Assembly: GCA_019057475.1 (NCBI GenBank)
Contig: DXJO01000010.1
Span: forward strand, 43,460 to 107,459
Length of the DNA: 64,000 nucleotides
Direction: 5' to 3'
Origin: Candidatus Thorarchaeota archaeon
GTDB lineage: Archaea; Asgardarchaeota; Thorarchaeia; Thorarchaeales; Thorarchaeaceae
Below, piece after piece: positions 1-19,135 of the stretch (its first letter is position 1; every line of letters begins with the position of its first letter). Below the pieces are notes generated by a model, which saw nothing but the letters and a program-made list of their open reading frames with translations, had not been told where the DNA came from and did no database searches. A program made the position numbers and the translations under genes.

Positions 1-499
1 CGCGATGTACTTCATGAGCCTTCTGAATAGCACCAACCCATACTGGATTATCGGGGCGCAAGCATTGGCTGCAGCTAACGTGAAACTCATCGGGATTGAA
101 GTAATTCCAATGGCATATCTCTTGGTAGCACCAGGGAAGACTGCTGCATGGGTTGGAGATGCCAAGGTGTTTCCGCGGGAGAAGCCAAAGATTGCCCTGA
201 TGTATGCACTGGCAGCTGAGCTTCTCGGCTTCAAGTTGGTCTATCTTGAAGCTGGCAGCGGCGCCGAGGGCAATGGAGTTCCCCCAGAGATGATCACTAC
301 TGTTTCTCAGTATGTTGACATTCCTCTGATTGTTGGTGGGGGGTTCAACGATGCCAAGTCTGTTACTAATGCCGTTGAGGCTGGTGCGTCAATTGTCGTT
401 CAGGGCACCTATCTCGAAAAGAACATCTTGGAAGACAAGGGTGCAGGTCTCAAGAATATCGTGAAGGCACTGAAAAAGGCTGGCGCGAAGCGGGTCTGA
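1..499 (+). CDS. Geranylgeranylglyceryl phosphate synthase (PcrB/GGGPS family). This is a C-terminal fragment that is truncated at the window edge.
   Basis: YLEAGSGA and IVGGGF motifs typical of the PcrB/GGGPS TIM barrel. The ORF runs off the 5' end of the window. Confidence 0.6.
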   Translation, partial: AMYFMSLLNSTNPYWIIGAQALAAANVKLIGIEVIPMAYLLVAPGKTAAWVGDAKVFPREKPKIALMYALAAELLGFKLVYLEAGSGAEGNGVPPEMITTVSQYVDIPLIVGGGFNDAKSVTNAVEAGASIVVQGTYLEKNILEDKGAGLKNIVKALKKAGAKRV

Positions 500-587
500 G
501 GTGCGGCGCGCGGCATTTGTGCTGGTCATGTTTAAATAGTTGTCATGGTTTCAGGAACCGAAGCACGTCCACGGAGGATGAATATCA

Positions 588-980
588 TTGTCCAGCAAGA
601 CTGAGTTGTTGAATGCAATGCTGCTAGACCTCAGTCGTGCTTCTCAAGACAACGTGCAAGCAAGCATCATAATTTCAAGGGCACAGGGTCTCACAATCTG
701 TTCTTACTTTCCTGAAAGCATAGACTCTGGTGTTGTTCCTGACGAGGATATCATTGCCGGGCGGTCCATGCAGATCCAGATGGGGACCAGGAAAGTCTTC
801 AAACAACTGAAGCGCGGTCCATTCGTCAGGATGCTCGTAGAAGGCGAGAGTGGGTACATAATCATCTGCGATGCCGGTGAGAATGCCATACTTGCGGTTC
901 TGACTAACAAGCGGGCCAATATAGGATACATGTTTTTCATGATGACCAGAATAGCCAGGCGCATCGAGCAAATCCTGTAG
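588..980 (+). CDS. Roadblock/LC7 (MglB-like) domain protein.
   Basis: It is 130 aa. The size and hydrophobic pattern match the Robl_LC7 fold. Called from residue pattern only. Confidence 0.45.
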   Translation: MSSKTELLNAMLLDLSRASQDNVQASIIISRAQGLTICSYFPESIDSGVVPDEDIIAGRSMQIQMGTRKVFKQLKRGPFVRMLVEGESGYIIICDAGENAILAVLTNKRANIGYMFFMMTRIARRIEQIL

Positions 981-1038
981 AATCGCTGTTCCAGCAATTT
1001 TTTATGGCTCTCGATTTTTCCTCAAACTGTAATCAAGC

Positions 1039-1983
1039 ATGGTGAATAAGGTGTCAGATGAAAAGTCAGATGCAACGAAGGATAGCGACCAGACTGAAGA
1101 TGAATGGGCGAAATGGCGACAGGCAGGTGTCATAGCCAAAGCGGCGCTCGATATTGCTCGTCCTATGGTGAAGCCAGGAACCAAAGTAATCGATATAGTT
1201 GAATCTGTCGAGAAACACATCCTTGAGAATGCATCCGGCATTGCCTTTCCGTGCAATGTATCACTCAACAGTATTGCTGCACACTACACGTCTCCCCTTA
1301 ATGACGAAACTGTGATTGAGGATGGTGACCTTGTGACAGTTGACTGTGGAGCCCACATAGACGGCTGCATTTCAGATACTGCATTCACCATCGCGTTGAA
1401 TCCCGCGCATGAGAGCTTGGTGAAGGCCTCGGTGGATGCCACGAATGTTGCCATCAGGATGATGCGGCCAGGGGCCAAACTGAACACTATCGGGGCCCTC
1501 ATCGAAGACACAATCAAAAGCGCTGGCTTTGAGCCCATTAAACAGCTCACCGGTCATCAGCTGCAGGAGTACGAGCTACATTCAGAGAAGCAGGTGCCAT
1601 GTGTTTCGGGCAAGTCTGAAGTGAAGGTGGAAGAAGGTGAGATCTACGCCGTTGAAACATTCGCTAGTACGGGTTCGGGTAATGTAACTGATCTCCCCAA
1701 CCCTCTGATCTATCAGCTATTGCCAATCAGAGTCCCTGTTCGATTTAAGGGGACGAAACAGTTTCTCTCAATTGCCAGAAGGGAGTACAAGGAGTTTCCA
1801 TTTGCCGAACGCTGGCTAGCTGAGAAGATGAAACATGCTACGCTCAAAATGGCCATTCGAGAGCTTACGCAGAAAAGCGCCCTTATTCCGCACCACATAC
1901 TTACTGAGGAGAAGGGCGAGCTAGTTTCCCAGCATGAACACACGGTGATAATCACAGAAAATGGACATGAGCGGACGACCTAG
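1039..1983 (+). CDS. map: Methionine aminopeptidase, type 2 (archaeal/eukaryal).
   Basis: AFPCNVSLNSIAAHYTSP and the pita-bread metal-ligand pattern are present. A roughly 20-aa D/E/K/S-rich N-terminal extension precedes the conserved core. Confidence 0.85.
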   Translation: MVNKVSDEKSDATKDSDQTEDEWAKWRQAGVIAKAALDIARPMVKPGTKVIDIVESVEKHILENASGIAFPCNVSLNSIAAHYTSPLNDETVIEDGDLVTVDCGAHIDGCISDTAFTIALNPAHESLVKASVDATNVAIRMMRPGAKLNTIGALIEDTIKSAGFEPIKQLTGHQLQEYELHSEKQVPCVSGKSEVKVEEGEIYAVETFASTGSGNVTDLPNPLIYQLLPIRVPVRFKGTKQFLSIARREYKEFPFAERWLAEKMKHATLKMAIRELTQKSALIPHHILTEEKGELVSQHEHTVIITENGHERTT

Positions 1984-2176
1984 TGTTTCTTGCGTCATGA
2001 TTCGCCTTCTAGGCGCTTCAGTGTCTACAATGTGTGAAATCCGTGCCGGGCTAAAACATTAAAAGACCCTTTGGCTATGTGTACTTTGGGTCAGGGAGAC
2101 TGTCGCGACAACATAAACATGTCCAGTGATATCTGGCACGTCTTTTCCCCCTCGCTAATTCAGTGGAGGCTTTGAA

Positions 2177-3145
2177 TTGGAGAACTCGCGTGGAGCTATC
2201 TCAGGCAATGGCAAATCAGCACGCAGTGATGGTGAGAGTCATGCATGTCCTGAGTGCGGGTTCAGCGCAGTCGTTGAGGATATCGCGCGAGGGGAACGCG
2301 TCTGTGGAGGATGCGGTCTTGTCCTCTCAGATCATCGTATCGATACCGGCGCTGAATGGAGAGCATTCAGCTCTGAGGAAGGTGATGCGCGTAGTCGTGT
2401 TGGTGCCCCTATGAGATATACCGTCCATGACAAAGGGCTATCTACAGTCATTGACTGGCGGGATAGAGACCTTTCTGGGCGCAAGCTTACCCCCTCACGA
2501 AGATCCGAGATATACCGCCTTAGGAAGTGGCAGATTCGGTCTCGTGTTCACAGTTCGATGGACCGCAATCTTGCGCAAGCTATGTCGGAGCTGGAACGGC
2601 TATCATCCCAGCTTGGGCTTCCTAAACCAATCAGAGAACTTGCAGCACTCCTTTATCGCAAGTCAATCTTGAAGAAATTGGTACGCGGTAGATCGATTGA
2701 GGCTATGGTAGCAGCTTGTCTTTATGCAGCATGCAGGATTCGGATTAAACCTCGTCCACTGGATGAAGTCGCGGATGCATCCCGTGTTAACAAAAAGAAG
2801 CTTGGTCAATGCTACAGGTTACTTCTTCGCAGTCTGAATCTAAGAATCCCACTGAGCAGTCCTGTACACTATATATCTCGCTTCGCTTCTGAGCTAAAGC
2901 TTTCAAGCCCTGTTCAATTGAGAACTGTCGAGATTCTGAATCAAAGCCGAGCCATAGGTCTCACGATTGGACGTGACCCGCTGGGTCTGGCGGCAGCTGC
3001 AATCTACGTTGCGTCAATAATGCTTGACGATCGTCGAACGCAGCGTGAGATCGCTGAGGTTGCTCGTGTCACAGAGGTTACGGTTCGCAATAGATACAAG
3101 GAGATTGTAGCGAAGCTCAAAATTGACACTCTCAACTCTGTGTGA
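2177..3145 (+). CDS. tfb: Transcription initiation factor IIB (TFB), paralog 1.
   Basis: N-terminal Zn ribbon CPECG...CGGCG, B-reader, two cyclin repeats, and a C-terminal EIAEVARVTEVTVRNRYKE. Confidence 0.9.
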   Translation: MENSRGAISGNGKSARSDGESHACPECGFSAVVEDIARGERVCGGCGLVLSDHRIDTGAEWRAFSSEEGDARSRVGAPMRYTVHDKGLSTVIDWRDRDLSGRKLTPSRRSEIYRLRKWQIRSRVHSSMDRNLAQAMSELERLSSQLGLPKPIRELAALLYRKSILKKLVRGRSIEAMVAACLYAACRIRIKPRPLDEVADASRVNKKKLGQCYRLLLRSLNLRIPLSSPVHYISRFASELKLSSPVQLRTVEILNQSRAIGLTIGRDPLGLAAAAIYVASIMLDDRRTQREIAEVARVTEVTVRNRYKEIVAKLKIDTLNSV

Positions 3146-3232
3146 TTGCGCTCATACAAGATGGGATGGTTCTCCCTGATTGAGATTACATCTGGCTATT
3201 AACCCGCAAGCAATCATTAGTCGCTGCTAGGC

Positions 3233-3574
3233 CTACCTCCGGCCTCTCCTCTGGTAAGTCCAATCGACAATAACCATCTCTTCGGGGAAGCCAAGCTTTC
3301 CCAATACTCCAGTTATAACCCCCCGATGATCACCCTGAAGTTCGACATGACCACGCTTGGCAGCTCCTCCGCACGCCAGTTTACTCTTCAGTTTGGTTGC
3401 CATGTCACCAACGTCAATGGTCTTATCAAAGCCAGATACTACGGTGGTAAGTCTTCCCCACTTGCGACGCTCGATGGTCACAGTGATTCTTGCTTCTTCC
3501 TGTGCTATCGTTTCACAAACGCACAAGTCGGTGGGAAGTCCACAGTTCGGACAAATGCCTCCTTCATCGCTCAC
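3233..3574 (-). CDS. Translation initiation factor aSUI1/eIF1.
   Basis: CPNCGLPTDLCVC N-terminus followed by a SUI1 domain (RKWGRLTTVVSGFD). Confidence 0.8.
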   Translation of the reverse strand: MSDEGGICPNCGLPTDLCVCETIAQEEARITVTIERRKWGRLTTVVSGFDKTIDVGDMATKLKSKLACGGAAKRGHVELQGDHRGVITGVLGKLGFPEEMVIVDWTYQRRGRR

Positions 3575-3724
3575 TAAATCAGTTACTCCTAATTCATTGC
3601 TGTAGCTTTATGCAGAGCTCCTTAGGTCAAGTCTGACATATAAGTGCTTTCGGATGTATGAATCATGAACCGCTTTCTCTAAGCGGAAAAGAGTAAAGAA
3701 CACAGTCACAATGCTTTCGTACTC

Positions 3725-5305
3725 ATGTCTGGGCAAGTCTTGATAGTTGATGCGTTGAGTGTTGGGTCCGGTCGTCGTGGAAGTTCGCGCGACTCAATTG
3801 GATGTGGCCCGCGCACAGTAGCTGGCGTAATGGAAACTCATGCGGTTCCCTGCAGAATCAAGAGAGCTGAGGCTGTTCTGTTTGCAAAAGGTCGAACTCG
3901 GGGGTTTGAGCATCTAGCTATTAGCGCGATGACGATGGACTTGCCAGCTACTCGGAGCATTGTCGCACAGTGGCGTTGGGCACACCCCCGTGGGAGAATC
4001 ATCGTCGGGGGACCAATTGCATCGAGGCCTCATGATGTTCTAAAGGAGGTCCGGCCTGATGTACTCGTGATAGGAGAGGGCGAGGCAACCCTTAATGAGC
4101 TGCTCCTTGCTGGTTTTCTTGAGGAACGCATTGACCTAGCTCCGATTGCCGGGATTGGTTACATGAATGGCTCTTATCCAGTCGTTACAGAACCCCGCAA
4201 TCTTCTTTCCGCCGCTGATATCTCCACACAGTATCAACCGTCTCGTGTTAGGATTGTAGACTACCCAGCCTACCAAGCCAGCAGGGTTTACGTAGAAGCA
4301 ATTCGCGGGTGTTCGAACTTCAGGAGGACATCTCTCACTCTGCCGGACGGTCGAAAGTGTTCCGACTGCAATAACTGTGACTCCGCTGACCCGCACGAAC
4401 GACTGGATTGTCCTGAGAACATTCCCCCTGGTTGTGGTTTCTGCAGCGTACCTGCAGTGTGGGGTTCTCCAAGAAGTCGGTTTCAGCAGTCCATTGTCAA
4501 CGAGGTAAGAGAGCTCCTAGACTTGGGAGTTCACAGAGTTGTACTGGAGGCTCCTGGCTTCCTAGATTACATGCGAGGGAGCGAACCACTCACTGATCCA
4601 TGTCACCCTCCCGCCAATCTCGAAGCATTAACCAAGCTGCTAAAGGAACTCAAATCACTTCCTCAACTTTCCGAGGGAACGGCTCATCTATCCATTGAGA
4701 ATCTAAAGGCGTGTTTGTTTACGGATGAAGTTGCAGACGTTTTCGCAAAGCACCTTGGTGACACAGCACCCAATATTGGCATTGAAACTGGCTCCGAACA
4801 ACATATGCGCCAAATCGGTAAGTGTGGTAGTCCTGAAGATGTTGTGAGAGCTGTTAGAATCGCAAAAGCACATGGAATGCTTCCCTACGTTTACTTCATC
4901 TACGGCCTTCCTGGGGAGAGCTTTGTCACTGTGGAAGAGTCGGTCAAACTAATGCGCCAACTAGACGAGGCAGGCGCCGCTCGAATCATAATGTATGGGT
5001 TCCGTGCCCTGCCGGGGTCAGCCTTTGAAGAGTTCCAAGAACCTGACATGCGTGACCCTGGAGGCGAGCGACTACGAAATGTAGCAAACCACATTAATCG
5101 TCGCAAGAAAGAAACCTATGTTGGTAGAGTGATACGGGGGATTGCTGCAGAACCGTCATGGAGCCGCCACGGTTACACCATGGTCTACCCTCTGGGCGAT
5201 GGACCACTCATGACAGTTCACGGTGGATATTCTGCCGGAGCCATTGTAGATGTCAAAGTGACAGAGGTGTTGAGTGCCGGTCTACTTGGCGGAGTAGCCG
5301 TTTAG
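3725..5305 (+). CDS. Radical SAM protein with an N-terminal B12-binding-like Rossmann domain and a C-terminal TRAM domain. It is MTTase-like, and its cluster motif is interrupted.
   Basis: RIIVGGPIAS...VLVIGEGE (B12-like domain). RGC...(CSDCNNC...C insert)...PPGCGFCSV (interrupted cluster motif). C-terminal TRAM-like beta-barrel (HGGYSAGAIVDVKVTEV). Confidence 0.55.
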   Translation: MSGQVLIVDALSVGSGRRGSSRDSIGCGPRTVAGVMETHAVPCRIKRAEAVLFAKGRTRGFEHLAISAMTMDLPATRSIVAQWRWAHPRGRIIVGGPIASRPHDVLKEVRPDVLVIGEGEATLNELLLAGFLEERIDLAPIAGIGYMNGSYPVVTEPRNLLSAADISTQYQPSRVRIVDYPAYQASRVYVEAIRGCSNFRRTSLTLPDGRKCSDCNNCDSADPHERLDCPENIPPGCGFCSVPAVWGSPRSRFQQSIVNEVRELLDLGVHRVVLEAPGFLDYMRGSEPLTDPCHPPANLEALTKLLKELKSLPQLSEGTAHLSIENLKACLFTDEVADVFAKHLGDTAPNIGIETGSEQHMRQIGKCGSPEDVVRAVRIAKAHGMLPYVYFIYGLPGESFVTVEESVKLMRQLDEAGAARIIMYGFRALPGSAFEEFQEPDMRDPGGERLRNVANHINRRKKETYVGRVIRGIAAEPSWSRHGYTMVYPLGDGPLMTVHGGYSAGAIVDVKVTEVLSAGLLGGVAV

Positions 5306-5379
5306 GGCTGCGACTTGCTCGTTGTCTAAGGCAAAACTTCTTATTGCTAACTTCAAGTGACTCCGGCTGGTGCTCTAGT

Positions 5380-5523
5380 ATGGTCTACACTTGCTTTTCC
5401 TGTAAGCATGAAGTTACGCCCGAAGGACTAAAGACCTTGCCCGGCGTAAAGTGCCCCTACTGTGGTGGACGAATTCTGTACAAGGTTCGCCCTCCTGTTG
5501 TTAAGCGAGTTAAGGGCGTCTAG
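5380..5523 (+). CDS. rpoP: DNA-directed RNA polymerase subunit P (Rpb12/RpoP), 47 aa.
   Basis: MVYTCFSCKHEV...VKCPYCGGRILYKVRPP Zn ribbon. It lies inside a longer spurious 121-aa ORF (5158..5523). The internal ATG at 5380 is in frame. Confidence 0.75.
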   Translation: MVYTCFSCKHEVTPEGLKTLPGVKCPYCGGRILYKVRPPVVKRVKGV

Positions 5524-5653
5524 TTTGTTCCCTTTTTTGTTTCACAATGTTCTATGGCTTGTATACTAGAAACGCAGCTACTACGATTGAAGCCAAGAAT
5601 AGCATCACAAAAAGGACAGACAAAATCTTTCTCTTTAGAGCGTATCTCAATAC

Positions 5654-6652
5654 CTACTCCTCCGTTTCACCTATGAGAATTTTCCCTAGCTTTTCTAGAC
5701 CCTCAATCCCTCTTATTTCCCCCTCAAAGAGCGGAACCACCGTCAGGCTCAGGTCAGAGTACAGGTCTCTGATATCCTTGAGGTTTGTCTGCTGCATTTG
5801 CCGTCGTGTAGCGCAAAACTTGCACGTTGGATTTGGTGGCACAAGATGATTCACCACAATACTACTGACAGGTATTTTCCATTTGTCCAAGCTATGCATA
5901 AGCCGTTGGGTTTCAAAGACGGCCATCGCTTCAGGTATTAGGACTACCACAAACTGCGTCAGCTCAGGGTCGGACAGCTGGATTCGTGCAGATCGTATCT
6001 TGTCCTTCATCATCTGCATCATCTGCCAAGAATTATCTTCTTGTTCAGCTCCTCCGAACATACCCTTGAGACCCGCAATCATTGAGCTCATTCTTTCTCG
6101 CATTGTAAGTAGCTTTCCCATCCAGCTGTCAAGAAGGTCTGGCAGCTCTAGCAGCTTCAGAGTATGCCCGGTGGGGGCAGTGTCGAATATGACCCGGTCG
6201 TAGGAACTGTCTTCCAGGTATTCTAGCATCTTCCCAAAAGCCATAGCTTCGTCAGAGCCAGGCGGAGACATTCCACCCATATCACCCATTAACTGTGCGG
6301 CCATGGCTCCTTCGGATCCCATCGCGCCTGATCCCATTGCATTCTGGAATTCAGCCATTCCCTTCTCGGTGTTGATCTCCAGTCCCCAGAGATTACCCAC
6401 ACCTTCTATTGACACTTCATTGCCGCCACTCAGGTTCTGATCAAAACTATCACTAAGACTGTGGGCTGGGTCGGTTGAGAGAACTAGAGTTCTGTAGCCG
6501 TGCTTGGCTGATAGAATCGCCATTGCACCGGCGCAGCTGGTCTTTCCAACGCCACCCTTCCCGCCAGAGAGTATGAACTTGATATTACCGTTGTAGACTA
6601 TATCCTTGATACCCATGGACTTCGACTCGTGATGTTTCGCACCACGATACAT
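5654..6652 (-). CDS. ArsA/Get3 (TRC40)-family anion-transporting/targeting ATPase.
   Basis: GGKGGVGKTSCAG P-loop plus the DTAPTGHTLKLLELP signature of ArsA/Get3. Confidence 0.8.
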   Translation of the reverse strand: MYRGAKHHESKSMGIKDIVYNGNIKFILSGGKGGVGKTSCAGAMAILSAKHGYRTLVLSTDPAHSLSDSFDQNLSGGNEVSIEGVGNLWGLEINTEKGMAEFQNAMGSGAMGSEGAMAAQLMGDMGGMSPPGSDEAMAFGKMLEYLEDSSYDRVIFDTAPTGHTLKLLELPDLLDSWMGKLLTMRERMSSMIAGLKGMFGGAEQEDNSWQMMQMMKDKIRSARIQLSDPELTQFVVVLIPEAMAVFETQRLMHSLDKWKIPVSSIVVNHLVPPNPTCKFCATRRQMQQTNLKDIRDLYSDLSLTVVPLFEGEIRGIEGLEKLGKILIGETEE

Positions 6653-6863
6653 AATGAGGCTTTTGGAATGAGCTCCGTATTAATGCAGTAACAGGTTTAA
6701 GCGGAAATATGTTGGCTCACTCACACTGATACGATAACTCTATCAATGATGTCACTGGAGCACACTGGAGGTTCTCACAATCTCGTTTCCACAAGTTCGA
6801 ACCACTGCTGAACAATTCCCATCCACGATTCTGCGGCTACTTCGTCTTGAGGTTCCTCCAGGC

Positions 6864-7514
6864 ATGCCCCCCGCTAATGAGGAGATTGTGAAACTATTCA
6901 ACCCGAAATCTATCGTCATGGTGATGATTGACAACTTCGGTCTGTTCGAGGCGGTTGTCTACAAACCCGAAGCACTAATCAAGAACTTGGAGGTACTCGC
7001 ACTTATTGAAACAGACGACCCCTATGCAGTATCACTAATCAACTCAATACTCCGTGGGCCCCTCGACCAGCAGTTCCACCTGATGCAATATGTGAAGAGT
7101 CATGGCAAGTTTACGCATGTTATCTGCCGCGAAGACGACATGAGCGCTTTTGGTTTTGATTCCGCTTACGCCGTGAACCCGCGTGACGACATGGCAACCT
7201 ATGTCGAGTCGACAAAAAAGGTCTTCCGCAGCGAATTACTATTCATGCACTTCTTGGACTTTGAGAGCCTCTATGCCCAGTATGGGCATCGAACGCCCCC
7301 GAAGACACTACTCGAGAAGATAGTTCGACGCACAGACAACTGGATCAAGGTCCTGTATCGTCAAGCAAGGGAGGACACGCTGTTCATGATAATAGGCAAT
7401 CACGGACGTAATCCGATTCCTCTGAACTATGAGGGCAAGCTTGCAGAATGGAGAAAGGCAAATTCTCCAATTGCAATCGTACTGCAGAAGCGTGCGAACA
7501 AACTAGCTGAATAG
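6864..7514 (+). CDS. Hypothetical protein, possibly of the alkaline-phosphatase-superfamily metalloenzyme fold.
   Basis: IIGNHGRNP motif is the only clue. The assignment is weak. Confidence 0.3.
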   Translation: MPPANEEIVKLFNPKSIVMVMIDNFGLFEAVVYKPEALIKNLEVLALIETDDPYAVSLINSILRGPLDQQFHLMQYVKSHGKFTHVICREDDMSAFGFDSAYAVNPRDDMATYVESTKKVFRSELLFMHFLDFESLYAQYGHRTPPKTLLEKIVRRTDNWIKVLYRQAREDTLFMIIGNHGRNPIPLNYEGKLAEWRKANSPIAIVLQKRANKLAE

Positions 7515-8294
7515 CGTTGGAATCCCGAATAGAATCGCGACTACGCCCAGAACCAAACAGAGCACCCAAAATCTGACTCGCCCCGCAAGGCGTAGAAGAA
7601 ACTCCATCGATAGAAGCCCGGTCACAAACACAATCACTTCAATCAGAAACAGGTCTATGATACTCACAGGCAATGACGATCCGCCTATCAATACGTCCAG
7701 TACGAAGATACCCACAACAGCAGGGACGCTCATAAGGAAACTGAACTTCATCGCTGCTTCCTTGTCAACACGCTGCATGAGCAGGGATGAAACAGTCACT
7801 CCTGACCTACTCAGTCCGGGCAGTACTGCAAGACCTTGGAGCAATCCCGAAATCAACGCTTCCTTGTCATCGATTTCGCGGCCTACTTCTTCCGATGCGC
7901 TATCTCTTCTGGTAGGCATGTACAGGACAATTGCTGTGACCACTAGAAGGACGCCAATCACAATATTCAGCATTTCACCATTGATTGTGGAGAAACTGCT
8001 CTTGAGCACAAAGTACAATGGAACCGCAGTCATCGCTGTGCCCACCGTGGCGATGAGAAGGCGTCTGAACATCAGCTTGTCTTTCATAGTCAGCAATCCC
8101 ACGATATCTCGCGGATAGCGAGCAATCACTGCCAAAGTAGTTCCGATGTGCAACCAAATCACAAGTGTGAGGAGGCTTTCGCTTGGTACCGCGCCCATGC
8201 TGTAGACAAAGAGCACTGCCTGCCCCTCGCTGCTGATTGGCAGCCACTCCACAAGACCTTGAATCAGAGCTACTACTACTTGCCACAGTTCCAT
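7503..8294 (-). CDS. uppP: Undecaprenyl-diphosphatase (UppP/BacA).
   Basis: EWLPISSEGQ motif and 7-8 TM helices. Confidence 0.8.
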   Translation of the reverse strand: MELWQVVVALIQGLVEWLPISSEGQAVLFVYSMGAVPSESLLTLVIWLHIGTTLAVIARYPRDIVGLLTMKDKLMFRRLLIATVGTAMTAVPLYFVLKSSFSTINGEMLNIVIGVLLVVTAIVLYMPTRRDSASEEVGREIDDKEALISGLLQGLAVLPGLSRSGVTVSSLLMQRVDKEAAMKFSFLMSVPAVVGIFVLDVLIGGSSLPVSIIDLFLIEVIVFVTGLLSMEFLLRLAGRVRFWVLCLVLGVVAILFGIPTLFS

Positions 8295-8379
8295 TTGATG
8301 GCCTTCTCACTGCCCCGGAAGTACCGAAGATTTAAAAGCTCGCCTCAATGGCACTGCTTCTTGGAGCGTAGTACACAAG

Positions 8380-9042
8380 ATGGTTCTCGATAATGGAAGG
8401 TTCCTGACACAAGAACTGGCAAACGTTACCCAGATGCTAGAGGAACACTTCCGTGTGGTATTATCAGCAAACAAGATAGCTGCAAACATACTCACTGATT
8501 GGCTTGATGAACACAAGACGGTGAGCAAAAAGGACTTGGCCAAGGTAACCTCTCTGGAAGAGAAGGGCGATGAACTCAAGCGTATCTTGATGAAGAAACT
8601 TGCTGATGCAAACTCTCTGATGCAGCGAGAGGACCTACTACGTCTCGTGCATTACAACGATAAGCTTGTGGACGGGGCTGAAATTGCCTGCTATCATCTC
8701 GCCGCCGTTATGGACAGCTGGGTTCCTAAAGGCGTACTGAAGAGGAAGTTGCACGAACTTGGCGGCCTAGTATTGTCGATAGTTACTGAGCAGAGGGAGG
8801 CAGTCAGATTCCTCTCGATCAACATGGAAACCTCCATGAAGAAAGCGGACGAGATTTGCAGGATTGAAAAACAGATTGACATCCTACAACGAGACATACT
8901 TCAACCACTCTACACGTCCGAAATCGGTCTGGCAAAGATTCTCCGACTGAGAGACTTTGTGAATGTGATGGAGGAGATTGCTAACCTCAGCGAAGATGCG
9001 GCAATCACAATCCGTTCGTTGTCACTAAATCTGCATACATAG
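8380..9042 (+). CDS. DUF47 / PhoU-like protein (putative phosphate-transport regulator family).
   Basis: Two PhoU-like helical repeats, similar to the TIGR00153 family. Confidence 0.6.
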   Translation: MVLDNGRFLTQELANVTQMLEEHFRVVLSANKIAANILTDWLDEHKTVSKKDLAKVTSLEEKGDELKRILMKKLADANSLMQREDLLRLVHYNDKLVDGAEIACYHLAAVMDSWVPKGVLKRKLHELGGLVLSIVTEQREAVRFLSINMETSMKKADEICRIEKQIDILQRDILQPLYTSEIGLAKILRLRDFVNVMEEIANLSEDAAITIRSLSLNLHT

Positions 9043-9050
9043 TCTGGCCG

Positions 9051-9626
9051 GTGCCTTGTTTGTCTAAGAAGATCGATGAGGTTGCTGTGGCTGACTTAGT
9101 CGGCGACAGGGCCATTGTTTGGGATTCCAAGCATGGAATGCAACTGTATGGTAATGGCTATTTCGGGCAACCAGTAGGAATAAGGAAGCCAAAGAGTGCG
9201 GAGTTTGAAACACCCCTCGAGCTGTCACTTCTAGAAGCGGCATACCTGACTAAAATCGGTATTCTTAGGGTCAATGTCGCAACCAAGAAGCGACCACTGA
9301 CGACGGATGAGATTGTTGAAATTGGCAGTACCTTTGCTAACGATTTTCTTGATCGTTTCTTGGTGTACTCTCACCTTCGTGAACAGGGCTATATCATACG
9401 CCCCGGTTTGAAGTTTGGTACTGATTTCGCTGTCTATAGGAAAGGTCCTGGGAAGGATCACGCCCCCTTCATGGTTCACGTAATTTCGAGCAGCAAAGGA
9501 TTGATCCCTCTTGATATTGTCAGAGCAGGACGTCTGGCGACAAGCGTCAAGAAGAAATTCATAATCGCAACAATCAAAGAGAATGCAACAATCGCCTACT
9601 ACTCCTTCGTTTGGCACCGTCCGTGA
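9051..9626 (+). CDS. endA: tRNA-splicing endonuclease catalytic subunit.
   Basis: YSHLREQGYIIRPGLKFGTDFAVYRKG...HAPFMVHV catalytic region. Confidence 0.8.
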   Translation: MPCLSKKIDEVAVADLVGDRAIVWDSKHGMQLYGNGYFGQPVGIRKPKSAEFETPLELSLLEAAYLTKIGILRVNVATKKRPLTTDEIVEIGSTFANDFLDRFLVYSHLREQGYIIRPGLKFGTDFAVYRKGPGKDHAPFMVHVISSSKGLIPLDIVRAGRLATSVKKKFIIATIKENATIAYYSFVWHRP

Positions 9627-9740
9627 GCAAGCTGGAGCACTCGTGCCCAACCCTCGCTCCTCATACCTTCCCGTCCAAATGAGGAACACAAATAAGCACT
9701 GTCTGACACAATCTCATCTGACCCGCGAGGGAGAATCCTG

Positions 9741-10058
9741 ATGGCAGACAAAGCTGAAAACGCGAAAGCCTTTGGCTTGCTTTTAGCTCAGGCGTGGGAG
9801 AATATACCCTCCTTCATCTGCAGCAACGATGATTACATGTATGTATTGTATCCCGTTGACGACACCATGGAGAAGTGGATTGAGGCGTCGATTACTTTTC
9901 CCGATGGCACTTTTGATCAACAAGAAATACCTCCAATTAGGGCTATCGCCCTTCTAGTCGAGGAGCTCAAGGTGTTGTCCAGCTACGGTGTTGAGTCATT
10001 GGTTTCATCAAAGGGCAAACTTGACGCGGCAGCAGGACGACTAGGAACCCTCACATGA
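9741..10058 (+). CDS. Hypothetical protein.
   Basis: ORF only. No recognisable motif. Confidence 0.3.
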   Translation: MADKAENAKAFGLLLAQAWENIPSFICSNDDYMYVLYPVDDTMEKWIEASITFPDGTFDQQEIPPIRAIALLVEELKVLSSYGVESLVSSKGKLDAAAGRLGTLT

Positions 10059-19044: not shown

Positions 19045-19135
19045 GGCCCCCTACAGAGCTGGTGGTCTGGTTCCGTGGGCTTCAAACCCATGATCGTGCA
19101 AGCGATAAGAGTTCGATTCTCTTAGGAGGCCGCCA
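19045..19135 (+). tRNA. tRNA-Sec (anticodon UCA), folded by hand.
   Basis: Acceptor GGCCCCCTA pairs with TAGGAGGCC (19123-19131), with one C.A mismatch. G73 is at 19132 and CCA is encoded at 19133-19135. D arm is CAGAGC-TGGT-GGTCTG. Anticodon stem is 6 bp, CGTGGG/CCCATG. Anticodon loop is CTTCAAA, with TCA at 19082-19084. Variable hairpin is ATCG-TGCAAG-CGAT. T arm is AGAG-TTCGATT-CTCT. TTTAAG TATA-like box at 19015-19020. Confidence 0.7.

Follow-up and report, generated by a model that had tools for sequence, protein, structure and literature searches.

Background

Radical S-adenosylmethionine (SAM) enzymes are usually recognised by the motif CX3CX2C. The current work deals with a protein that departs from this rule. 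It is encoded in a stretch of 64,000 nucleotides (the window) from the Candidatus Thorarchaeota archaeon assembly GCA_019057475.1 (contig DXJO01000010.1, positions 43,460 to 107,459 of the forward strand), and the first and second cysteines of its motif are held apart by a 40-residue insert with four further cysteines. The protein, here called the Thor protein, belongs to a family that occurs both in TACK archaea and in the Asgard archaea, which no known group exceeds in closeness to the eukaryotes.

Several described systems resemble parts of this protein. In the activases of glycyl radical enzymes, such as those of benzylsuccinate synthase and 4-hydroxyphenylacetate decarboxylase, a ferredoxin-like insert lies near the radical SAM motif and is thought to help electron delivery or stability. 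The activase insert, however, follows a complete CX3CX2C motif and holds two CX2CX2CX3C clusters, whereas the Thor protein has a single CxxCxxC...CP site nested inside the motif. At the profile and fold level, the radical SAM core and TRAM domain of MiaB and RimO, which belong with MtaB to the methylthiotransferases (TIGR00089; 7MJV, 4JC0), are the closest to those of the Thor protein. These enzymes carry a UPF0004 domain with three conserved cysteines; the Thor family lacks this domain and has instead a B12-type N-terminal domain and a split motif, and its extra cysteine site is both dispensable and placed elsewhere than the auxiliary cluster of the methylthiotransferases. The B12-binding/radical SAM family of MJ_1487 (TIGR04013) is the best NCBIfam match for most family members (92-146 bits), but its model, with 382 positions, is too short for a TRAM domain, and outgroup sequences of the TIGR04013 type have the canonical motif.

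The best solved relative is MgmA (9CCB), the cobalamin-dependent glutamine C-methyltransferase of methyl-coenzyme M reductase (MCR), which binds cobalamin in its N-terminal domain in the base-off/His-off form (PMC11796369). MgmA is described in methanogens and related MCR-containing archaea (PMC11796369), in contrast to the Asgard and TACK distribution of the present family. In B12-dependent radical SAM enzymes, the residue below the cobalt is typically hydrophobic (PMC11796369). The MgmA/QCMT family (TIGR04014) has a canonical CX3CX2C and no cysteine-rich insert, and sequence searches gave no alignment between its C-terminal region and the TRAM domain of the Thor protein. Non-canonical radical SAM motifs have been described in QueE (CX14CX2C), HmdB (CX5CX2C), ThiC (CX2CX4C) and PhnJ, and QueE provides the precedent for an extended loop between the first two cysteines with normal cluster geometry (PMC4389238). 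The corresponding loop of the Thor protein has 40 residues (18 to 42 in the family) and a four-cysteine site of its own, which is found in none of the cases listed there (PMC4389238).

A family of radical SAM proteins with a split cluster motif

The radical SAM gene of the window is a single intact open frame in which every family-invariant residue is kept (Table 1). Its product matches the Pfam family Radical_SAM (PF04055) over residues 236-409 with 60.1 bits, above the cut-off of 29.5, and shares 94% identity with the homologue P0001 and 90% with a homologue from a Thorarchaeota metagenome-assembled genome (MAG). Cysteines are located at positions 27, 43, 196, 212, 215, 218, 229, 237, 240, 293, 330 and 367. 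The distance from VEAIRGC196 to PPGC237GFC240 is 41 positions, as a previous reading of the DNA letters alone (the sequence-only reading) had estimated, and the motif is CX40CX2C in place of the spacing that is canonical for PF04055.

When 1.84 billion representative proteins were searched exhaustively, about 50 full-length representatives (clusters at 50% identity) were found that align with the Thor protein from end to end at 34-44% identity (E 1e-122 to 1e-64). Below the family, the E values fall off a cliff to about 1e-17, and the matches there are broken into two stretches. Motif counts were taken from an alignment of 46 family representatives and the 20 next-best proteins, B12 radical SAM enzymes of the MgmA/TIGR04013 type, used as outgroup. 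C196, C237 and C240 are invariant in all 46 and in all 20, far beyond chance. RGCxxxCxxC is canonical in 20/20 outgroup proteins; the loop between the first and second cysteines is expanded in 46/46 family members, with motifs ranging over CX18-42CX2C. In MgmA the sequence reads RGC-PGN-C-TF-C, of which RGC aligns with RGC196 and CTFC with C237GFC240. Because the alignment holds on both flanks, the 40 extra residues are placed exactly between the first and second cysteines.

A canonical triad hidden by a frameshift, which the sequence-only reading had named as a finding that would overturn it, was sought in the six frames of 3600-5400. No C-x3-C-x2-C was found in any of them, so this explanation is excluded. 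A frameshift or pseudogene was rejected also on account of the intact frame and the hundreds of homologues with the same layout. C229 was considered as a cluster ligand in place of C196, which would give CX7CX2C, and was rejected as less parsimonious, since C196 aligns with the first cysteine of the canonical relatives and is retained in orthologues that lack C229. From these alignments, C196, C237 and C240 are identified as the ligands of the radical SAM [4Fe-4S] cluster. CX40CX2C is a variant of the motif and the cluster site is not missing; the split motif and the insert are a trait of the family and not an artefact.

Twelve residues (S197, N198, R284, P292, P295, E325, N326, K328, E354, Y390, Y424 and N458) are invariant in the family and lacking in the outgroup, while GGP (95-97) and GEGE (117-120) are common to both. 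Relatives of the protein are encoded in 299 GTDB species genomes, including Heimdall-, Hel-, Odin-, Baldr- and Atabeyarchaeia, Bathyarchaeia, Korarchaeota, Methanomethylicia, Culexarchaeia and Thermoprotei/Desulfurococcales. The close homologues come from Asgard MAGs (Thor, Loki/Promethearchaeota, Hermod, Odin), and cultured carriers are Pyrodictium occultum, Hyperthermus butylicus, Pyrofollis japonicus and Fervidicoccus fontis. Membership in this family and its architecture can be stated with high confidence.

Source annotations are all generic ("B12-binding domain-containing radical SAM protein", "YgiQ/COG1032", "hypothetical") or mis-assigned ("MtaB"), and neither the Thor protein nor any tested family member passes an NCBIfam cut-off. 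The Thor protein scores 101.9 bits against TIGR04013 (cut-off 251) and 94.1 bits against TIGR04014 (cut-off 360); the range of the other family members against the latter is 69-97. No description of the family was found in literature searches that paired radical SAM with Asgard, B12-binding, TRAM, Thorarchaeota or tRNA, and a review of B12-dependent radical SAM enzymes gave no match to the terms sought (PMC12931638). As far as found, these radical SAM enzymes with a split CX(18-42)CX2C in Asgard and TACK archaea are a family new to the literature. The sequence-only reading would also have been undermined if the insert were common in a characterised family; the insert is indeed family-wide, but no characterised member of the family was found.

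The insert and its four cysteines

The insert reads C212SDC215NNC218DSADPHERLDC229PENIPP before C237GFC240SVP, which gives the pattern C-x2-C-x2-C-x10-C-P. All four cysteines are present in 40/46 representatives and all four absent in 6/46, strictly all or none, and the insertion itself does not occur in the 20 outgroup sequences. In an alignment of 99 sequences, C196, C212, C215, C218, C229, C237 and C240 are all invariant, and the proline corresponding to P230 follows C229 in 97. Ferredoxin-like CIxCGxC is common among the inserts of the family.

CxxCxxC with a distant Cys-Pro is the classical cubane [4Fe-4S] signature of single-cluster ferredoxins, and zinc ribbons consist of two CxxC knuckles on hairpins. 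The insert has the former arrangement; in place of two knuckles it has CxxCxxC and a single cysteine. An AlphaFold2 model of the Thor protein built from the 99-sequence alignment has a mean predicted local distance difference test score (pLDDT) of 94.6 and a predicted template modelling score of 0.93; the insert (residues 197-236) reaches pLDDT 92-96, against values below 50 in an earlier run with 15 close homologues. It is modelled as coil with two short helical turns, with no strands according to DSSP and no beta-hairpins. When homologous insert fragments were compared with Pfam, Fer4, Fer4_2, Fer4_6 or Fer4_13 matches appeared in 10/10, at 7-16 bits and below the cut-offs of 21-25. The insert of the Thor protein as an isolated fragment gave no Fer4 match in Pfam. 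The motif, judged by its sequence, is of the ferredoxin type and not of the zinc-ribbon type. The suggestion in the sequence-only reading of a zinc ribbon or auxiliary metal site is therefore kept in its second half only: the ribbon finds neither paired knuckles nor strands, and the metal site is taken to be a putative CxxCxxC-x10-CP site. The reading of the insert as an auxiliary [4Fe-4S] module for electron transfer is moderately supported.

A separate set of cysteines was noticed in the Thor-type clade. C27 (3803-3805), C293 (4601-4603), C330 (4712-4714) and C367 (4823-4825) are invariant there (15/15); in the rest of the family these positions are mostly Ala, Arg, Ser/Asn/Cys and Pro, respectively, and C293 co-occurs with C330 in 9/9. 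They could make up an additional metal site particular to this clade, or else a disulfide close to the active site. As a family-wide auxiliary site they were rejected, being invariant in the Thor-type clade only.

Probable loss of the insert cysteines in orthologues

The members without insert cysteines have motifs of CX18-26CX2C and include the proteins of Pyrodictium, Hyperthermus, Pyrofollis and Fervidicoccus, that is, all four cultured species. One of them, P0160 at locus L092, shares its gene context with a four-cysteine form from Desulfurococcales at locus L089: PhoU_div and EndA are upstream and GlyRS and arginase downstream, and an RpoP-type gene is found at the edge of L092. This shared synteny marks P0160 as an orthologue and not a paralogue. 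The cysteine-free members keep all other family-invariant residues. In a neighbour-joining tree, which is crude, excludes the insert columns and carries no support values, the four-cysteine forms are basal and the cysteine-free forms are nested at two positions, a five-member crenarchaeal clade and the protein P0169. From this topology the four-cysteine module looks ancestral and appears to have been lost at least twice. Losses in which the other invariant residues are kept imply that the module is accessory and does not take part in the core chemistry. Such dispensability fits an electron-transfer or a structural role.

At locus L091, a 69-residue ferredoxin (C10-x2-C-x2-C16...C61-P) is encoded at 6486-6695 (+), 28 bp downstream of the gene for P0169 and on the same strand. 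This arrangement is as expected if a separate ferredoxin replaced a lost built-in module, and it may represent the split version of a fusion.

In the best surviving alternative, in our view rather unlikely, the insert serves as a structural Zn(Cys)4 module, similar to a zinc knuckle or ribbon, which stabilises the loop or helps to dock the substrate and has no redox role, while the enzyme otherwise acts in the manner proposed below. Four co-conserved cysteines are equally compatible with zinc, and some insert fragments match zf-C2H2_11 (E 0.02-0.16) and A2L_zn_ribbon (E 0.08) as weakly as they match Fer4. The dispensability of the module in Pyrodictiaceae and Fervidicoccus would suit a structural accessory, and R201 and R226, which are fixed in all 99 aligned sequences, together with the median isoelectric point (pI) of the family inserts (8.8), could suit contact with nucleic acid. 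These points are opposed by the cubane signature in place of two CxxC knuckles, by a confident model without a beta-hairpin and Fer4-type matches in every fragment compared, and by the stand-alone CxxCxxC...CP ferredoxin that adjoins one cysteine-free member.

Domain architecture

By profile and fold comparisons the protein is a hybrid, with a Rossmann domain of the class-B type, a core like that of methylthiotransferases and a TRAM domain. PF02310 matches residues 57-126 at 30.7 bits in the whole protein and 32.6 in the isolated domain, a borderline result beside the cut-off of 32.1; many homologues have a precomputed PF02310 match. The family profile matches MgmA over the N-terminal domain (85-196) and core with an E value of 2.6e-28, the N-terminal part alone with 2e-07, and it matches the N-terminal domains of CysS and TokK as well, which likewise bind cobalamin base-off/His-off. 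Along RimO, the profile aligns at 4.9e-16 over residues 224-521, TRAM included, up to chain residue 419 of 438; along MiaB it reaches the TRAM domain at chain residue 452 of 457. TIGR00089 likewise aligns residues 237-521 with model positions 153-428 of 429. Pfam PF01938 (TRAM) did not match the whole protein or its isolated fragment, and PF00919 (UPF0004) did not match the protein. The core has a partial TIM-barrel fold, and in the AlphaFold2 model the TRAM strands are at 469-477, 484-489, 495-499, 507-517 and 520-525. Residues 1-185 contain no cysteine conserved across the family, C27 being Ala in most members and C43 variable.

The sequence-only reading had described the N-terminus as B12-binding-like and the C-terminus as a TRAM barrel, in an architecture that resembles but does not match MiaB/MtaB, and had proposed to search the four Pfam families named above. 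The architecture it described agrees with the present results. These profile matches show the N-terminal domain to be homologous to the Rossmann domain with which class-B radical SAM methylases bind cobalamin.

It is improbable, though not negligibly so, that the N-terminal domain is vestigial and free of cofactor, as in AprD4, and that the enzyme carries out non-methylating radical chemistry, such as dehydration, epimerisation or C-C bond formation, on a substrate unrelated to its gene neighbours. Against this, GGP and GEGE are shared with proven cobalamin-dependent relatives, and the closest characterised sequence relative, MgmA, depends on cobalamin. The series D9-x-L11-x-x-G14...S67-x-M69...G95-G96 also resembles the classical B12 signature, DxHxxG...SxL...GG, with a hydrophobic residue replacing His; this comparison serves as a lead only.

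Least probable is a divergent methylthiotransferase acting on tRNA or a ribosomal protein, with its sulfur-donating cluster moved from the UPF0004 domain into the radical SAM loop: the core and TRAM domain are indeed closest to those of RimO and MiaB, and a cluster beside the radical SAM cluster would mimic their short inter-cluster geometry, but cysteine-free orthologues keep the invariant residues and the synteny, so that the site is not essential to the chemistry, its four ligands would all be Cys and leave no open iron, and the N-terminal domain is of the B12 type (1.2 bits, no match, against that of MiaB), with scores far below the cut-offs of TIGR00089 (48.5 vs 251; family members 48-80), MtaB (34.5 vs 357), RimO (33.8 vs 357) and MiaB (27.3 vs 355).

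Proposed mechanism and significance

The best explanation of the whole is that the protein is a functional member of a three-domain family with a built-in ferredoxin, and that RNA or an informational-machinery protein is the target of its class-B chemistry; about even odds (roughly 0.5) are given to it. C212, C215, C218 and C229 would bind one auxiliary [4Fe-4S] cluster adjoining the radical SAM cluster and acting as the built-in ferredoxin, which hands the reducing electron to the latter. The reduced cluster would then cleave SAM to a 5'-deoxyadenosyl radical, and the TRAM domain would hold the substrate from which this radical abstracts a hydrogen. The likeliest outcome would be transfer of a methyl group from methyl-cobalamin in the N-terminal domain, which is the class-B chemistry. 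The auxiliary cluster would not donate sulfur, since the four cysteines are all gone from orthologues with the same gene context, in which everything else is retained; such an accessory role argues against a sacrificial cluster of the MiaB/RimO type.

The likeliest substrate would be RNA (tRNA or rRNA), or else a small transcription or translation protein. An informational substrate fits the conserved neighbours rpoP, aSUI1, TFB, GlyRS, tRNA-splicing endonuclease, S30e and GatDE. The median pI of the family is 9.2 and that of its TRAM domains 9.9, consistent with RNA binding. A protein target is kept open by analogy with RimO, which has a TRAM domain, and MgmA, both of which act on proteins, and RpoP may be one candidate. 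Cobalamin-dependent methylation of an RNA or of an informational-machinery protein is plausible as a specific activity and is put forward tentatively. More doubtful is the reading of this family as the first radical SAM enzymes of class B that target RNA or core proteins of archaeal transcription or translation (e.g. RpoP), with a nested ferredoxin-type electron-entry module, conserved across Asgard and TACK archaea and missing from the model archaea whose RNA and protein modifications have been mapped.

Several observations weigh against this explanation. CheY-like domains match the N-terminal domain about as well as B12 domains do, and AprD4 has a Rossmann fold without cobalamin, so that the fold alone is no proof of the cofactor. 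The Thor protein itself is acidic, with a pI of 6.6 overall and 6.9 in the TRAM domain. None of the motif, the model and the Fer4 matches proves iron-sulfur over zinc. The cysteine-free member with an adjacent ferredoxin is a single case, and no ferredoxin neighbour was found at the five other cysteine-free loci (L090 and L092-L095).

Among the non-canonical motifs found described, the largest expansion between the first two cysteines is that of QueE, and its loop has no metal site. The conservation of a four-cysteine site inside the split motif goes beyond that case, and if the insert does hold a second cluster, nature would here have wired an electron donor directly to a catalytic cluster in a compact way. 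The cysteine-free orthologues in cultured Pyrodictiaceae and the ferredoxin-adjacent member are natural controls for this idea. No characterised enzyme that combines a B12-type domain with a TRAM domain was found. Since its informational neighbourhood is deeply conserved in Asgard and TACK archaea, the protein is a promising lead to an RNA or protein modification yet to be discovered in these sparsely measured lineages.

Gene neighbourhood

The features of the locus are collected in Table 1. As the sequence-only reading had noted, the gene lies between aSUI1, which is divergent, and rpoP; its adjacency to rpoP recurs across phyla. The rpoP gene begins 74 nt past the radical SAM stop codon on the same strand, and the two are possibly co-transcribed.

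Table 1. Positions in the window of the radical SAM gene, its predicted domains and cysteines, and the adjacent genes
Feature	Position	Strand	Remarks
Radical SAM enzyme gene, complete	3725..5305	+	526 aa, stop TAG at 5303-5305
N-terminal Rossmann domain, cobalamin-binding type, aa 1-185	3725..4279	+	D9-x-L11-x-x-G14, S67-x-M69, G95-G96-P97, G117-E-G-E120
Radical SAM core, partial TIM barrel, aa 186-440	4280..5044	+	
Cys196, first ligand of the radical SAM [4Fe-4S] cluster (RGC)	4310..4312	+	Aligns with the first Cys of canonical RGCxxxCxxC
40-residue insertion between first and second Cys, aa 197-236	4313..4432	+	Proposed auxiliary ferredoxin-type [4Fe-4S] site
Insert Cys codons	C212 4358-4360; C215 4367-4369; C218 4376-4378; C229-P230 4409-4414	+	
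Cys237-Gly-Phe-Cys240, ligands two and three	4433..4444	+	Aligns with CxxC of MgmA, RimO, MiaB
C-terminal TRAM-like five-strand beta-barrel, aa 465-526	5117..5302	+	Preceded by a long helix, aa 445-465
rpoP (RNA polymerase subunit P/Rpb12), 47 aa	5380..5523	+	Zn_ribbon_RPAB4 26.6 bits, cut-off 24
aSUI1/aIF1, divergent upstream neighbour	3233..3574	-	Pfam SUI1 56.5 bits

Within the Thor-type clade, synteny is nearly perfect over about 10 kb (1-10058 of the window; loci L001, L002, L004 and L005-L040), and the proteins of this block are about 60% identical among MAGs that bear the labels Thor, Loki/Promethearchaeota, Hermod and Odin. The gene order of the block is PcrB, Roadblock/LC7, MetAP, TFB, SUI1(-), the radical SAM gene, RpoP, ArsA/Get3-like(-), a 216-residue hypothetical protein, BacA(-), PhoU_div, EndA and a 105-residue hypothetical protein. 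Because the whole block is syntenic there, adjacency within this clade is uninformative. More widely, loci of Thor, Odin, Baldr, Hel and Atabeya keep SUI1 beside the radical SAM gene; more tellingly, in the last four of these groups and in many Bathyarchaeia, rpoP comes directly after the radical SAM gene, on the same strand. This second adjacency does not recur in the Heimdall or Kor loci examined. Other recurrent neighbours are GlyRS, EndA, PhoU_div, SUI1 and TFB; Heimdall loci have Csl4, PCNA, GINS and S27e, and loci of the crenarchaeal clade have S30e, GatDE and Nop5. The association of the gene is with informational genes in general.

Three minor observations were also made. A 121-residue open reading frame listed at 5158-5523 (+), which overlaps the 3' end of the radical SAM gene, is an in-frame upstream extension of rpoP; the true rpoP start is the ATG at 5380, and the homologues have 47 residues. 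Two contigs filed under bacteria, L060 (a Patescibacteria bacterium MAG) and L078 (Candidatus Desulfaltia sp.), carry an archaeal radical SAM gene followed by an archaeal rpoP, and are probably archaeal contigs mis-binned into bacterial MAGs. Farther along the window, at 19045-19135 (+), a tRNA-Sec gene with anticodon TCA was identified by ARAGORN and by Rfam RF01852 (52.1 bits, cut-off 47), from which the genome appears to use selenocysteine.

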